From: an uncultured Spirochaetota bacterium
GTDB lineage: Bacteria > Spirochaetota > Spirochaetia > SZUA-6 > Fen-1364
Assembly (NCBI GenBank): GCA_963781885.1
Contig: CAWAHW010000007.1
Location: 32,001-96,000, forward strand
Direction: 5' to 3'
Length of the DNA: 64,000 nucleotides
In this document: in pieces, positions 1,478 through 36,944 of the stretch
Layout: each line of letters opens with the position of its first letter
How positions within the stretch are numbered: the first letter of the stretch is position 1
Position numbers and translations under genes: made by a program
The notes under the pieces: generated by a model
The model's input: the letters and a program-made list of their open reading frames with translations, nothing else
Database searches by the model: none
What the model was told of the DNA's origin: nothing

Positions 1478-2107
1478 CTATCGTTCGGTGTCCACACCCC
1501 TGCGCTTCACTCTTTTTGAGGCACGCACCGCGTCCTCAAAGGCTTTCATGCAGTGTTTTCTTACGGCAGGATCATAGGCCTTAATGGCTTCCTTGGAGAA
1601 CTTTGCCAGATTCCTGCTTATGAGCTCATACACATCGCTTCCGTCTTTGTGCGCAACGTTGGCACCCTGTTCGCGTAATTTGTCAAAGTAGACAGCTGCC
1701 TTGAGCTGCACCAGTGCATGCAAGCCGATGAAGGAAGCCCCCAGCTCCTCATCATACTCTCCGACTTTGCCAGGGTCGGGCATTCCCATGGGCATCTGCC
1801 AATCGTCTTCAGCAAATAAAATGTCGATCGTGACGCCCGTCTTCTTGTCCAAACAGTTTTCCGGTCCATTGCTTGAGATCTCACCCTGCAGCGGCAATAT
1901 TTTGCGCCAAGCTTCCCTATATGTGAGGACGTCTATATCCATTGTGGTTCGCGGATAGCCGTTTCGAATGACCGCCATTCCTCCAACGATACAATAGGTT
2001 AAATGTTTGGCAATGCTGAGGGCGTGGAAGCGGCGGACCACATCCATCAAGGGCGAATCCTTCATGTCTCCGTTGATTTTCAATATTTCGGCCGCTGTCA
2101 TCGGCAT
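1478..2107 (-). CDS. Pol-beta-superfamily nucleotidyltransferase-like protein, copy A
   Basis: Motif IVGGMAVIRNGYPRTTMDIDVL (GGxA..G..RxTxDxD) and C-terminal LK...KDGSDVYEL. About 70% identical to 36324-36944. Confidence 0.75.
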   Translation of the reverse strand: MPMTAAEILKINGDMKDSPLMDVVRRFHALSIAKHLTYCIVGGMAVIRNGYPRTTMDIDVLTYREAWRKILPLQGEISSNGPENCLDKKTGVTIDILFAEDDWQMPMGMPDPGKVGEYDEELGASFIGLHALVQLKAAVYFDKLREQGANVAHKDGSDVYELISRNLAKFSKEAIKAYDPAVRKHCMKAFEDAVRASKRVKRRGVDTER

Positions 2108-2196
2108 TCCTTCTTCTGCCTGTCCTTACTTGCCGTATCATCTTACCATAGCATACCGCGTCTTGTGTGCTCAACTTGATCCGATTGATAACCCGT

Positions 2197-5100
2197 GTTT
2201 CGACCCACGCGCCGGCGCAGGGTGCGACCATCCCAGAACACCTCCTCGTTCCCATGATGCGGGTTTCAATCCACGCGCCCGCGCGGGGCGCGACCGCGAC
2301 CTTCCCGCCGAGCCCCAGCTCATGAAAGTGTTCAATCCACGCGCCCGCGCGGGGCGCGACATCCTTTTCTCTGGCACGATGGTGCGCGCGATCCTCGTTT
2401 CAATCCACGCGCCCGCGCGGGGCGCGACAGGCGAGGAGGGTCAATTCTACGATCAGCCTCTTGTTTCAATCCACGCGCCCGCGCGGGGCGCGACGCGCAA
2501 GCTCGTACCCCCGAAGCCTCCGGCGCCAAAGTTTCAATCCACGCGCCCGCGCGGGGCGCGACGCACGGTAGGGACGTAATAGCGCATAACGGATGGGTTT
2601 CAATCCACGCGCCCGCGCGGGGCGCGACCCAGCGTCTCCGCCTTGTTGTACAGCGAGTTGAGGTTTCAATCCACGCGCCCGCGCGGGGCGCGACCCGCCC
2701 TGCGCGGTACCGGGGAGGGTGGGGCCGTGTTTCAATCCACGCGCCCGCGCGGGGCGCGACCCTGGCGGTCCCGGCGTCCGAGATTTCGACCAGGTTGTTT
2801 CAATCCACGCGCCCGCGCGGGGCGCGACCTGAGATGGACATGGGCAAGCTGCGCGAGATTCCCGTTTCAATCCACGCGCCCGCGCGGGGCGCGACGCAAG
2901 CCGAGGCCGAAAGATTTTGTATGGTTCTTGTTTCAATCCACGCGCCCGCGCGGGGCGCGACCCCCCTCGTGCAGTCATCCTCGATTTGCTCGTCGGTGTT
3001 TCAATCCAGGCGCCCGCGCGGGGCGCGACGGAGACCTCGTAGATCGACATTTGACACTCGTGCCGGTTTCAATCCACGCGCCCGCGCGGGGCGCGACCTC
3101 GCTTCTGCCGATCAGGCCATTCAGCGCCCAGGTTTCAATCCACGCGCCCGCGCGGGGCGCGACGAGATGGCGAGTAGCGGATTATAGGTGCGGAGCGTGT
3201 TTCAATCCACGCGCCCGCGCGGGGCGCGACCGCTACAACGCGCTCTACGGCGGAGCGGGATCCGGGTTTCAATCCACGCGCCCGCGCGGGGCGCGACGCG
3301 GCGTTCTGCCTCGCCGGCTCGCTGAGCTAGGCGTTTCAATCCACGCGCCCGCGCGGGGCGCGACCCATGTCCATCTCAGATGGAGACCAGGGAAATTTGT
3401 GTTTCAATCCACGCGGCCGCGCGGGGCGCGACCTGATCATCGTCCACAAGTCAAACGATGCTGCTAGGTTTCAATCCACGCGCCCGCGCGGGGCGCGACC
3501 GATGTTCTGGATTGATCTGTTGACGCGCCGTCATGTTTCAATCCACGCGCCCGCGCGGGGCGCGACGGCGATGTGGAGTGCCAGGAGCGAATCGTCCGCG
3601 CGTTTCAATCCACGCGCCCGCGCGGGGCGCGACCAAAGGCGAGCGGGCACGGCTACAACACCCAGCATGTTTCAATCCACGCGCCCGCGCGGGGCGCGAC
3701 AGCACGACGCGAGACTCCGCCTGTACGTATCTGTTGTTTCAATCCACGCGCCCGCGCGGGGCGCGACGCAGAGCCGTGTCTCCGTCTGCCACCTTCGCCA
3801 TGTTTCAATCCACGCGCCCGCGCGGGGCGCGACGCAACTCGATCTGCTTCTTTTCGTTAAGGACGCCCTGTTTCAATCCACGCGCCCGCGCGGGGCGCGA
3901 CCGAACTTGCCCCGTGGCTTGACGGGATAACAAGTGTTTCAATCCACGCGCCCGCGCGGGGCGCGACCTTGGATTCACTATCCATTGCCCGATAGCGCCA
4001 AGTTTCAATCCACGCGCCCGCGCGGGGCGCGACATGATGCTGTAAACAGTGTCTTTCACCCTACCGTGTTTCAATCCACGCGCCCGCGCGGGGCGCGACA
4101 TCGCAATAAATGCTTTCCTCATGTGTATACCCTCGGTTTCAATCCACGCGCCCGCGCGGGGCGCGACGCGGATATCGTCGTGGTGCCATGTCGGCAGAAT
4201 AGGTTTCAATCCACGCGCCCGCGCGGGGCGCGACCCAACTGGGCCAGCGACAACAGCGGTTCCTACGTCGTTTCAATCCACGCGCCCGCGCGGGGCGCGA
4301 CCAGACCGCACACTCCATGCATATTCATCGCATGGTGTTTCAATCCACGCGCCCGCGCGGGGCGCGACTTGACGCGGTTCACTACTGGGAGGCGATCCCG
4401 CGAGTTTCAATCCACGCGCCCGCGCGGGGCGCGACTCCTATCGGGCCACTGGTAGACAATCCATTTTCAGTTTCAATCCACGCGCCCGCGCGGGGCGCGA
4501 CGACAGTGGAACGGATGGTGCACGTTGCCCACGGGAGTTTCAATCCACGCGCCCGCGCGGGGCGCGACCCCGCCGCCGCTGGCGGGAGCGTCTGGCGTTT
4601 CTGGTTTCAATCCACGCGCCCGCGCGGGGCGCGACGTATGCCTCGTCCTCTTCCTCCGCACCAGCGGCCCAGTTTCAATCCACGCGCCCGCGCGGGGCGC
4701 GACATTGCCCCTTCTGCCTTTCCCTGGTTCTGTCGAAGTTTCAATCCACGCGCCCGCGCGGGGCGCGACCTGATTGCGCGGCGGTCACGGCATCCGCTCG
4801 GTTTGTTTCAATCCACGCGCCCGCGCGGGGCGCGACTCGGGCTGCACGTCGTCGTACCAGACTTCAATCTTCTTGTTTCAATCCACGCGCCCGCGCGGGG
4901 CGCGACTCAACCCATGGATTTTTTCCCTCGATGCGCAGAAGTTTCAATCCACGCGCCCGCGCGGGGCGCGACTCGTGGAATGGCGCGGGTCCTCCCACGG
5001 CGCCTTGTTTCAATCCACGCGCCCGCGCGGGGCGCGACGCGCGATCAGACACTCGCCGACATCACCGGCACGACGTTTCAATCCACGCGCCCGCGCGGGG

Positions 5101-35233: not shown

Positions 35234-36221
35234 TTATTTTCCCCCTGCGTACATCGCCGCCATCGCCTGAGCCTCTTCGGCAATGCGTTGGCGAAGATCG
35301 GCCGGTGCGAGTATTTCCACGTCGGCGCCCCAGCCCCGGATCCAGGGGAACATTTCCCGAGGCTCGGCGATCTGGGCGCGCCAGATGAGCTCGCCACTGG
35401 GCAGATCGGTGACGGCCTGGCTGGGATGCCAGACCGTCTCGCGCACCCTATGGGCCACATGCGCGGAAAAGCGAAGAACCACATCCACGGGCGCGGCGTC
35501 GGAGTACCAGATGCCCCAGGCGCCTTCCAGCACGCCCGCGATCCTTTCGTCAGGAGGAATCGCATAGGTGTCTGACGTAAGGGTGGCTTGGAGGATTCTG
35601 TCCACGCGCAACGTACGCAGGTGATCCTCGCCCGCACATTCCCCAATCGCCTGTACCGTCTGACCGACGGCATAGGGCACGATCAAATAGACGGCGAAGC
35701 GGTAGGTGTCATCGGCGTTCCGATGCACCGAGTGATGGAGCACTTCCACCATCCTGCCTTCGGACCATCCGCGCGTGAGGGTTTCCAGGACACTGAGGTA
35801 CACCGGATCGCGGCGTGCTCGCGAGCCCTCCACCTTCTCCGCTTCCGCCACGATATGTCCCGCGATGGTTGGGGAGAACGCCTGCAGCGATTGGCCGAGC
35901 TTTCTCAAGGCGGACGCCGTGTGAGGATTGAAACGATCCATCCGATCTGCCATCAGGCGGCTCGCCAAGATAGAGGGAGAGGGATTCGTGGATGGTGAGT
36001 CGGATGTGGCTGAGGTAGCTGTCGCGATTGATACCTACCAGGCCGGTATCATCCTCCGTGACCGGCAGGAAGGAACCCAGCTCCGTGACGTACCGCGCTG
36101 CGGTGGATCGGTGCACGCCGAGCCGACGTGCAATCTCTGACCTGTGAAGGCCCTGACCATGAGCCAGAAGCAGTTGCTCCAGTTGCATGAGGCGCTCTGA
36201 CTTGGTTGCTGCTGAAACCAT
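35234..36221 (-). CDS. HTH-WYL-WCX transcriptional regulator (one frameshift near 35965)
   Basis: N-terminal wHTH (RSEIARRLGVHRSTAARY) in one frame; WYL/WCX part (LRTLRVDRI, WHPSQ, PWIRGWGADVEILAPADLR) in the next. Confidence 0.9.
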
Positions 36222-36323
36222 TTGAAATTGGAAATTATGGTAGCACGATGAGAGCTACAAGTCCAATAAAACTGACGCTGACGCAAGGCATTTCAACTGC
36301 TATAAGGAAACCGCGGTCGTGAT

Positions 36324-36944
36324 ATGATGAATGCGGATATGACCGCCGCCGAAATCCTCAAGCTGAATGGCGATATGCGACAGTCCCCGCTCATGGACGC
36401 GGTCCGGCACTTTGACGCCCTGGCCCGTTCCCACCAGTTGCCGTACTGCATCGTCGGCGGCCTTGCCGTGATCAGAAACGGCTACCCGCGCACGACGATT
36501 GATGTCGATGTTCTCACTTTCAAGCAGGCGTGGCGCAATCTCCTGCCGTTGGAGGGAGAAATCACAAGCCAGGGAATCGACAACTGTGTTGACAAGGCAT
36601 CAGGGGTGACGATCGACATCCTCTTCGCTGATGACGATTGGGAGATGGTGATCCCGATGCCCGATCCGCTGAAGGCAGGGGAATACGACGAAGAGCTTGG
36701 GGCAAGATTCATCCGCCTGCACGATCTCGTGCAGCTCAAGATGGCCGTCCATCTTTCGAAGCTGCGGGAATCAGGCATGGATGTGGCAGCCAAGGACCTC
36801 AGCGACGTCTATGAGCTCATGCGCAGGAATCTTGCGGAGTTTTCCCCGGATATCATCCGCGCCTATGATCCCGCCGTAAGGAAATCCTGCATGAGGACGT
36901 TTGAAAGCGCGGCGCGCGCCTCAAAACGCGAAAAACGCCGCTGA
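36324..36944 (+). CDS. Pol-beta-superfamily nucleotidyltransferase-like protein, copy B
   Basis: IVGGLAVIRNGYPRTTIDVDVL and LK...KDLSDVYEL. Paralog of 1478-2107, divergent from the WYL gene. Confidence 0.75.
   Translation: MMNADMTAAEILKLNGDMRQSPLMDAVRHFDALARSHQLPYCIVGGLAVIRNGYPRTTIDVDVLTFKQAWRNLLPLEGEITSQGIDNCVDKASGVTIDILFADDDWEMVIPMPDPLKAGEYDEELGARFIRLHDLVQLKMAVHLSKLRESGMDVAAKDLSDVYELMRRNLAEFSPDIIRAYDPAVRKSCMRTFESAARASKREKRR

Follow-up and report, generated by a model that had tools for sequence, protein, structure and literature searches.

Solitary, predicted AbiEii/MenT-like nucleotidyltransferases beside a type I-C CRISPR-Cas island in an uncultured spirochaete

A 64,000-nucleotide (nt) stretch from an uncultured Spirochaetota bacterium (assembly GCA_963781885.1, contig CAWAHW010000007.1, positions 32,001 to 96,000; hereafter the window) carries two genes, NT1 and NT2, for putative nucleotidyltransferases (NTases). 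A preliminary description of this DNA noted that the two genes bracket a type I-C cas operon, a WYL-domain regulator gene and a CRISPR array, which we find to hold 366 repeats. The data suggest that NT1 and NT2 are solitary AbiEii/MenT-like NTases, that the variable region in which they lie also took up the type I-C island by horizontal transfer, and that they are probably neighbours of the CRISPR system and not components of it. If this reading is true, the bracket represents no new CRISPR accessory module and a conservative annotation of the locus is possible.

Relationship of NT1 and NT2 and extent of the family

Both open reading frames (ORFs) are present as described. The proteins align without gaps at 141/201 identities (70%; E 2e-109), so that BLASTP reproduces the manual count of the preliminary description, and the N-terminal GG..AV..G..RTTxDxD and C-terminal KD.SD..EL motifs are kept in both copies. 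The many synonymous differences that it mentioned are also there: at a DNA identity of 67.8% across 603 aligned nt, synonymous differences are saturated (pS 0.76, dS undefined) and non-synonymous differences are low (pN 0.20, dN 0.23). Saturation of pS together with low pN marks NT1 and NT2 as old paralogues under purifying selection. A blastn comparison of the two loci including their flanks gives one 600-nt match that is confined to the coding regions, with the flanks unmatched. As the match stops at the ORF ends, NT1 and NT2 are ruled out as the arms of an inverted repeat or the ends of a composite element. There are only two copies in the whole 4.64-Mb assembly (tblastn), NT1 and NT2 themselves, so the NTase is not a gene with many dispersed copies in this genome.

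The position of the two genes within the family was examined in a quick IQ-TREE tree of 109 rows with Shimodaira-Hasegawa-like approximate likelihood ratio (SH-aLRT) support only; the tree excludes rows shorter than 185 or longer than 260 amino acids (aa), the window duplicates P0003 and P0018, and L019 with its internal stop. NT2 pairs with P0004 (86% identity, SH-aLRT 99) within an 11-row clade and NT1 lies in a separate clade of 54 rows, the split between the two clades having a support of only 84-89. Because they fall in separate clades, NT1 and NT2 are not each other's closest relatives, and each window copy has closer relatives in other genomes than its partner. As far as the sequences can tell, NT1 and NT2 are ancient paralogues from different subclades and not the outcome of a recent duplication.

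A word-indexed search returned 114 clusters of relatives of about 207 aa and 48-86% identity, none of them with a Pfam domain, and an exhaustive profile search returned 25 representatives at E<=1e-30 and 575 at E<=1e-3. We fetched 25 genome loci (L001-L025), of which 24 are real. All 24 belong to metagenome-assembled genomes (MAGs) of Spirochaetota. There is no family member among the viral contigs, which hold only distant NTases with partial matches at 23-44% identity. On these searches the family is narrow and restricted to spirochaetes in the collections covered. NT1 and NT2 match nothing in NCBIfam or PADLOC, and in Pfam only DUF6036 below threshold (E 0.009 and 0.06). Titles and abstract openings found by literature searches contain no description of this NTase family or of the bracket arrangement around a CRISPR system. 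We would file the family as a new, uncurated subfamily of the already known AbiEii/MenT-like NTases; it is well conserved, restricted to one phylum and missed by current family libraries.

An alignment of 40 family members (A1) has a mean column identity of 66%. Residues G46, R56, T57, T58, K139, K146, D158 and D161 (NT2 numbering) are invariant, and G45, D60 and D62 are nearly so (>=90%). Three cysteines, C42, C88 and C189, are also invariant across the 40 members and H31 and H133 are nearly invariant; these residues might form a metal site or a redox switch.

Fold, motifs and likeness to known nucleotidyltransferases

An AlphaFold2 model of NT2, made with A1, has a predicted local distance difference test (pLDDT) value of 94.2 and a predicted template modelling (pTM) score of 0.90. 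Its top Foldseek match is the toxin MenT1 (E 2.8e-5). VIA-align superposes MenT1 (PDB 8an4, 8an5 and 8rr5) on the model with Z 13.7 and a root-mean-square deviation of 3.3 Å over 160 residues at 22% identity, and MenT1 is the best match whether the comparison is limited to the Foldseek top 1000 or run without bias over 48,161 chains. Lower Z scores were obtained for 5uvd (11.8), TM1012 (11.3), ANT(2'')-Ia (10.3), the C-terminal domain of AbiEi (10.1), MenT3 (9.6-9.8), LnuA (9.2) and MenT4 (6.6).

Dy et al. (PMC3985639) define four DUF1814 motifs, hGG (more generally hG[G/S]), R...DhD, K-hydrophobic...basic and +DxxD, and all four can be recognized in the family. Motifs I and II correspond to V-G45-G46 and, 13 residues on, D60-V-D62, with R56 four residues before D60; R63 of AbiEii likewise lies four residues before D67 (PMC3985639). 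Motif III, defined by a Lys in a hydrophobic stretch with an aromatic and then a basic residue behind it, corresponds to L-K139-x-A-V-Y/H-L-x-K146, with a spacing of 7 that equals that of K173/R180 in AbiEii, and motif IV to K157-D158-L-S-D161, where the 19 residues from K139 to D158 equal the distance from K173 to D192 in AbiEii (PMC3985639).

The curated models do not recognize this relationship. The AbiEii model of Pfam or PADLOC does not match NT1 or NT2 at E<=1, and Pfam AbiEii (PF08843) matches none of the 40 family members at the same cut-off, which counts against an AbiEii assignment. DUF6036 is the only Pfam model touched by most members (30/40, best E 0.0033), all of these matches being below the gathering score and limited to the N-terminal 50-60 residues. 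A direct search of the PDB with the A1 profile gives chance matches to ribosomal L7a as its top hits, and MenT1 at E 1.2. There is, however, an indirect link. Among 62 distant full-length hits of the family profile, 28 touch Pfam AbiEii and 37 touch NTP_transf_5, and 19 have no match at E<=1e-3. We aligned 16 of the distant hits with AbiEii matches, 14 of which are above the Pfam AbiEii cut-off, to give alignment A2. A comparison of A2 with the family profile by hhalign yields a probability of 99.8% and E 1.9e-30 over 178 columns, and a PDB search with the A2 profile retrieves MenT1 at E 2.6e-9. As A2 was picked from the hits of A1, the link from the family to A2 is partly given by construction, whereas the link from A2 to MenT1 is independent. 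In the alignment of A2 with MenT1, T39, D41 and D43 of MenT1 fall on T58, D60 and D62 of NT2. PMC10435456 names D41/D43 and T39 as the catalytic residues of MenT1, and in PMC11375011 T39 is the site of auto-phosphorylation.

The fold, the four motifs and the profile chain, taken together, support NT1 and NT2 as Pol-beta-superfamily NTases of the AbiEii/MenT kind, as predicted from sequence and model. The suggestion of the preliminary description that these are AbiEii/MenT-type enzymes thus stands at the level of the superfamily; the curated AbiEii models give no match.

MenT1 (Rv0078A) is of similar size (about 190-210 aa) and, like the NT family, consists of a single domain. Its GG...R-x-T-x-D-x-D segment aligns with that of the family through the bridging profile, and it shares the Lys and DxxD element in the C-terminal helices. 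The NT family differs from MenT1 in having about 20 extra conserved N-terminal residues outside the aligned core and a Lys/Arg-rich C-terminal tail, and in lacking a small antitoxin gene upstream; the 68-aa MenA1, by comparison, has its gene upstream of MenT1 (PMC10435456). AbiEii/DUF1814 proteins, the toxins of type IV AbiE systems, share all four motifs with the NT family, and proteins that pass the Pfam AbiEii model have a strong profile-profile link to it. However, AbiEii proteins are longer (about 280-300 aa against about 207 aa) and have 15 residues between motifs I and II where the NT family has 13. Additionally, the NT genes lie outside any bicistronic operon with an AbiEi-type regulator, and the NT family is confined to one phylum as far as the collections examined show. 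TM1012, the Paracoccidioides NTase-like protein (5uvd) and DUF6036 are minimal NTases of similar size and of unknown function. Domain scans of the window and its flanks found no AbiEi or HEPN gene adjoining NT1 or NT2, in agreement with the preliminary description, and this sets both genes apart from MNT-HEPN pairs.

Genomic context and possible roles

The preliminary description proposed a CRISPR-linked accessory or abortive-infection module as one explanation for the bracket. In order to examine the neighbourhoods of other family members, we used the 25 fetched genome loci (24 of them real; 338 kb in total), ten of which have at least 9 kb on either side, together with 80 metagenome loci that total 402 kb, 28 of which are 5 kb or longer. 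Both sets were searched by tblastn with 22 window proteins, namely NT1 and NT2, the cas proteins, the pieces of the WYL regulator and the proteins of the left and right flanks. Relatives of the window cas, WYL or flank proteins occur in none of the 24 genome loci, where the NTase queries alone matched, and in none of the 80 metagenome loci. Pfam shows no Cas or WYL family among the 181 neighbour ORFs within 5 kb in the genome loci, and there is no CRISPR-like array in the 25 fetched genome loci. Among 132 neighbours in 25 non-redundant metagenome loci, no PADLOC Cas effector or adaptation model was found; the matches there were a weak CasR-type regulator (E 4.8e-6), a TIR protein, an SNF2/ZorD-like helicase, a few candidate-system models and generic ABC ATPase matches. 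A search of 40 relatives' genomes found the NTase in 10 of the 20 genomes of the same genus, at 0-3 copies, and the type I-C cas7 in none of the 20. Weak cas7 matches occur in three genomes of other bacterial families, where cas7 and the NTase are on different contigs. An array lies next to a family member in one of the 104 foreign loci (L071, below), and with a single case enrichment cannot be claimed. The neighbourhood comparison, which the preliminary description had named as a refuting test, shows no enrichment of homologues near CRISPR and gives the proposed CRISPR link no support. As the bracket position reflects no conserved association, the NTases are best regarded as neighbours of the CRISPR system, and the bracket itself is likely to be a coincidence within a variable or defence-type region.

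The distribution of the family is patchy and accessory-gene-like. Neighbours vary between loci, even among the closest relatives of NT1 at 75-77% identity, and include genes for sugar and alcohol metabolism, transporters, radical-SAM enzymes and aminoacyl-tRNA synthetases. A minority of the neighbourhoods are of a conflict type. HEPN genes are found in one locus only, L002, where four MNT/HEPN-type genes lie around the NTase as separate MNT/HEPN pairs. L007 adjoins a reverse transcriptase, an NTP_transf_8 protein and a canonical AbiEii (PADLOC E 1e-79). L006 and L009 adjoin IS66 transposases, and L006 also an integrase fragment. L006 and L007 are two contigs of one genome, and their NTase flanks share segments of up to about 90% identity. 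This hints that in some genomes (L006/L007 and L009) the NTase gene moves as cargo of a larger repeat. One broken copy recurs in identical context in a MAG (L017) and in three metagenome contigs (L110, L112 and L113); in this copy residues 5-104 and residues 144-205 are matched in separate frames and about 40 residues are absent, and it is a fixed pseudogene in that population.

In search of a partner, every ORF of at least 25 aa lying no more than 700 nt from one of 24 family genes was compared with all the others. Flanks are common only to the near-identical loci L006/L007/L009 and L015/L020, apart from one 19-aa match between L003 and L004, and there is no AbiEi family among the 181 neighbour ORFs of the genome loci. 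In the window, no same-strand ORF lies within the gaps upstream of NT1 (89 nt) or NT2 (102 nt). According to Dy et al. (PMC3985639), DUF1814 genes do not always come with a linked antitoxin, and solitary members thus have a precedent.

By analogy with the DUF1814 and MenT enzymes, each protein would be a minimal Pol-beta-fold enzyme in which G45-G46 and D60/D62, plus D98, hold Mg2+ and the NTP and in which R56, K139/K146 and the K157-D158-x-x-D161 pentad bind the nucleotide. T58 would occupy the position of T39, the MenT1 phospho-acceptor. Such an enzyme would most likely add nucleotides to an RNA 3' end, for example the acceptor stem of tRNA, and so act as a growth-arresting, stress-related or defence-type effector. 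Since no antitoxin gene accompanies NT1 or NT2, control would be either intrinsic, for example by self-phosphorylation, possibly via T58, or supplied in trans. An RNA 3'-end-modifying, toxin-like role is our best guess; enzymatic activity, substrate and toxicity are all inferred by analogy. There is no antitoxin gene at any locus compared, which, if this reading is true, would make the family a convenient test case for how, or whether, solitary NTases of this kind are kept harmless. Self-phosphorylation of the conserved Thr is one candidate safeguard, and alternatively the fold may serve a use other than that of a toxin.

Several observations weigh against a toxin role. The 24 loci compared have no conserved partner ORF of at least 25 aa within 700 nt, and the genes around the NTase are mostly housekeeping genes. 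Conservation of the family is unusually high, with a mean column identity of 66%, and the proteins combine an acidic core (median isoelectric point 5.2) and a basic tail. Three of these points, the lack of a partner, the strong conservation and the acidic core, keep alive the explanation that these are small-molecule NTases, that is modifiers of antibiotics or metabolites like ANT(2'')-Ia or LnuA, and not RNA-directed toxins. Enzymes of the ANT(2'')-Ia and LnuA type have the same minimal fold and are normally encoded by solitary genes, as in the NT family, where the genes are often among metabolic genes. They score Z 10.3 and 9.2 against the model, 13% of the members of the nearest atlas cluster carry Aminoglyc_resit, and P0123, a close representative, scores 21.5 bits where the Aminoglyc_resit cut-off is 21. 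However, the structural score of MenT1 is clearly above that of ANT(2'')-Ia, and Aminoglyc_resit touches only one of the 40 members, at E 0.21. Additionally, the NT family has two features that Dy et al. (PMC3985639) give as specific to DUF1814, motif III (K...K) with exactly the AbiEii spacing and the +DxxD pentad, and we see no evidence in it for either a small-molecule pocket or resistance. We consider a small-molecule role rather unlikely, and an AbiEii/MenT-like function the better explanation.

The geometry of the bracket is harder to reconcile with mere coincidence, as NT1 and NT2 lie within 35 kb of each other and exactly at both ends of the CRISPR-Cas-WYL block; it may be a trace of past events, such as an insertion that separated two divergent genes. 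One version of this explanation, also raised in the preliminary description, is that one copy came with the island and landed beside a resident homologue, the arriving copy being either NT2 together with the WYL gene or NT1 together with the end of the array; the other is that the island split a head-to-head NT1/NT2 pair. Removal of 2197-36221 would indeed put NT1 and NT2 head to head about 190 nt apart, a geometry that is compatible with insertion of the island between a divergent pair, and the different subclades of the two genes are what separate origins would be expected to give. In composition, NT1 (GC 0.51; GC at third codon positions, GC3, 0.61) resembles the cas genes and NT2 (0.58 and 0.72) resembles the C-terminal piece of the WYL gene. 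However, the family is generally poor in GC3, lying below the median of its neighbours in 17/20 loci (which are related and not independent), so composition does not discriminate. Two adjacent copies were seen in no other genome or contig examined, and NT2-clade members elsewhere are not beside WYL genes. The flanks are syntenic in no relative: of 24 relatives examined for 6PGD, from the left flank, and DUF6390, from the right, seven have both, and in each of the seven they are on different contigs, so the insertion site could not be reconstructed and no empty site was obtained. A historical linkage is thus possible but doubtful, and coincidence within a variable region is the more probable origin of the bracket.

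The explanation that the NTases are accessories that work with the type I-C system or its array is very unlikely. It would have NT1 expressed by read-through from the array, for example, or the enzyme could modify CRISPR RNA (crRNA), its precursor or tRNA as a back-up abortive arm. Parts of the window would suit it. NT1 is on the strand of the array and the cas operon and starts 89 nt beyond the terminal repeat of the array, close to the 90 bp of the preliminary description. A promoter scan found no promoter-like site in this gap (2108..2196), the three promoter-like sites around NT1 being all inside the gene, and a terminator scan found no terminator-like site on its minus strand. NT2 is divergent from the WYL gene, as had been described, and the two share a region of 102 nt between their starts (36222..36323), in which there is no sigma-70-like site.

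The other array next to a family member counts in the same direction. In region 1252-2177 of L071, a metagenome contig of 2179 nt, the family gene ends 91 nt before an array of another type, with five repeats, a 30-nt repeat and a 61-nt period, which we presume to be I-E-like; a lipase-like ORF lies upstream of the family gene. Adjacency to an array has thus been seen twice, at the recurring distance of about 90 nt, and this is a point against coincidence. However, the copy in L071 lacks about 22 residues at its start, and its second catalytic Asp is replaced by His. The geometry also differs, as the array is faced by the 3' end of the gene in L071 and by the 5' end in the window. Moreover, cas or WYL relatives are absent from all 104 foreign loci, and the 10 NTase-bearing genomes of the same genus lack the type I-C cas7. 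Because the type I-C array and the L071 array each have a family member about 90 nt from a terminal repeat, family members could also be array-end genes that are switched on by array read-through and nucleotidylate RNA 3' ends of crRNA precursors or tRNAs, which would couple array transcription to growth arrest or RNA tailing without a separate antitoxin, but this is the least probable explanation of all and we regard it as highly improbable.

The type I-C island and the window flanks

The features of the island and the genes at its ends are listed in Table 1. The cas genes of a type I-C set (cas3, cas5c, cas8c, cas7c, cas4, cas1 and cas2) are all represented, along with the array, and the assignment to type I-C in the preliminary description is borne out by cas5c and Cas7/Csd2, which pass the type I-C models of NCBIfam.

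Table 1. Coordinates of the features at and around the island (positions in the window)
Feature	Position	Strand	Remarks
Left-flank ORF	87..1439	+	450 aa; PIN (aa 2-133) and S-adenosylmethionine (SAM) methyltransferase (aa 166-427); convergent with NT1
NT1	1478..2107	-	Putative solitary AbiEii/MenT1-like NTase paralogue, 209 aa
Spacer, terminal degenerate repeat of array to NT1 start codon	2108..2196	-	89 nt
CRISPR array	2197..26465	-	366 repeats of 32 nt, 365 spacers; trailer 2197, leader side 26465
Leader region, cas2 to first repeat	26466..26730	-	265 nt; by position only
cas2	26731..27020 (start approximate)	-	CRISPR_Cas2 E 5e-24; match = aa 199-275 of ORF 26731-27612
cas1	27021..28157	-	Cas_Cas1 E 6e-105
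cas4	28049..28681	-	Cas_Cas4 E 2.5e-22
cas7c (csd2)	28856..29905	-	Cas_Cas7 E 1.9e-70; TIGR02589 313.4 bits, cut-off 182
cas8c (csd1)	29730..31733	-	Four frame pieces in the assembly; Cas_Csd1
cas5c	31739..32473	-	TIGR01876 247.7 bits, cut-off 85; Pfam Cas_Cas5d
cas3 (HD nuclease and helicase)	32445..34913	-	822 aa, intact
Helix-turn-helix (HTH)-WYL-WCX regulator gene	35234..36221	-	Two overlapping frames; HTH families E 2e-5, WCX E 6e-20, WYL E 8e-5
Divergent intergenic region, WYL gene/NT2	36222..36323		102 nt
NT2	36324..36944	+	Second putative NTase paralogue, 206 aa; protein used for AlphaFold modelling

With 365 spacers the type I-C array is unusually long and spans 24.3 kb. Its repeat, read on the minus strand, is one that we take to be a typical type I-C repeat. 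The repeats are nearly perfect, 5/366 being variant, and only the one at 2197-2228, with five mismatches, is strongly degenerate, which marks the trailer end. The spacers are 29-47 nt long, mostly 34-35 nt; one exact duplicate and nine similar pairs are found among them. One leader-proximal spacer (25255-25289) matches contig C3 of the same genome (215763-215796) at 34/35 positions. The mismatch is at position 1 in crRNA orientation, and the 5' flank of this protospacer is not TTC, the protospacer-adjacent motif of type I-C systems. This match may be a tolerated self-target, or the target may be on an integrated or extrachromosomal element.

Two genes of the island are split in the assembly. 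The Cas_Csd1 profile is spread over four ORFs in segments 1-123, 128-260, 261-336 and 342-557, and the WYL gene consists of an HTH piece (35709-36221) and a WYL and WCX piece (35234-35968). We compared both with an independent public DNA run (X1), which covers 15 of 30 bins at a depth of 0.4-7. An X1 contig of depth 2.4, otherwise identical over 168 nt, has an extra G behind 30522. This insertion merges two cas8c pieces into a frame of 378 codons and removes one of the three breaks, which must therefore come from an error in the assembly or from variation between strains. At the other breaks of cas8c, 30808-30856 is without cover in X1 and 31227-31281 has fragmentary cover; in the overlap zone of the WYL frames (35709-35968) X1 cover reaches only to 35803, in a divergent contig with no indel. 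The loss of one cas8c break with the extra G suggests that the frame splits in cas8c and the WYL gene may be assembly indel errors rather than gene decay.

The cas genes have a GC content of 0.50-0.58 in comparison with 0.63 for the genome, and no homologue of the type I-C cas7 was found in 24 genomes of the same bacterial family. Low GC and the lack of cas7 in these relatives make the island look, from its sequence, horizontally acquired. The region is a variable, lower-GC stretch that also contains a Phd/PIN module. The ORF on the left flank matches Pfam PIN (E 8.7e-6), LCM (E 2.7e-34) and TIGR00027 (171 bits), and is either an unusual fusion of a PIN domain and a methyltransferase or two genes merged by an assembly indel. 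Its start is overlapped by 4 nt by a 76-aa Phd/YefM-like ORF outside the window (C7:31860-32090; PhdYeFM_antitox E 2.6e-4, below the cut-off).

On the right, three minus-strand ORFs of 203, 149 and 166 aa occupy 36999-38694, between NT2 and the first clearly native genes (EamA and DUF6390), and have no match in Pfam, NCBIfam or PADLOC. The flanks fit the picture of a variable region, with the Phd/PIN module on the left and, on the right, ORFs that belong to no family and an ankyrin fragment, an overlapping plus-strand ORF of 116 aa with ankyrin repeats.

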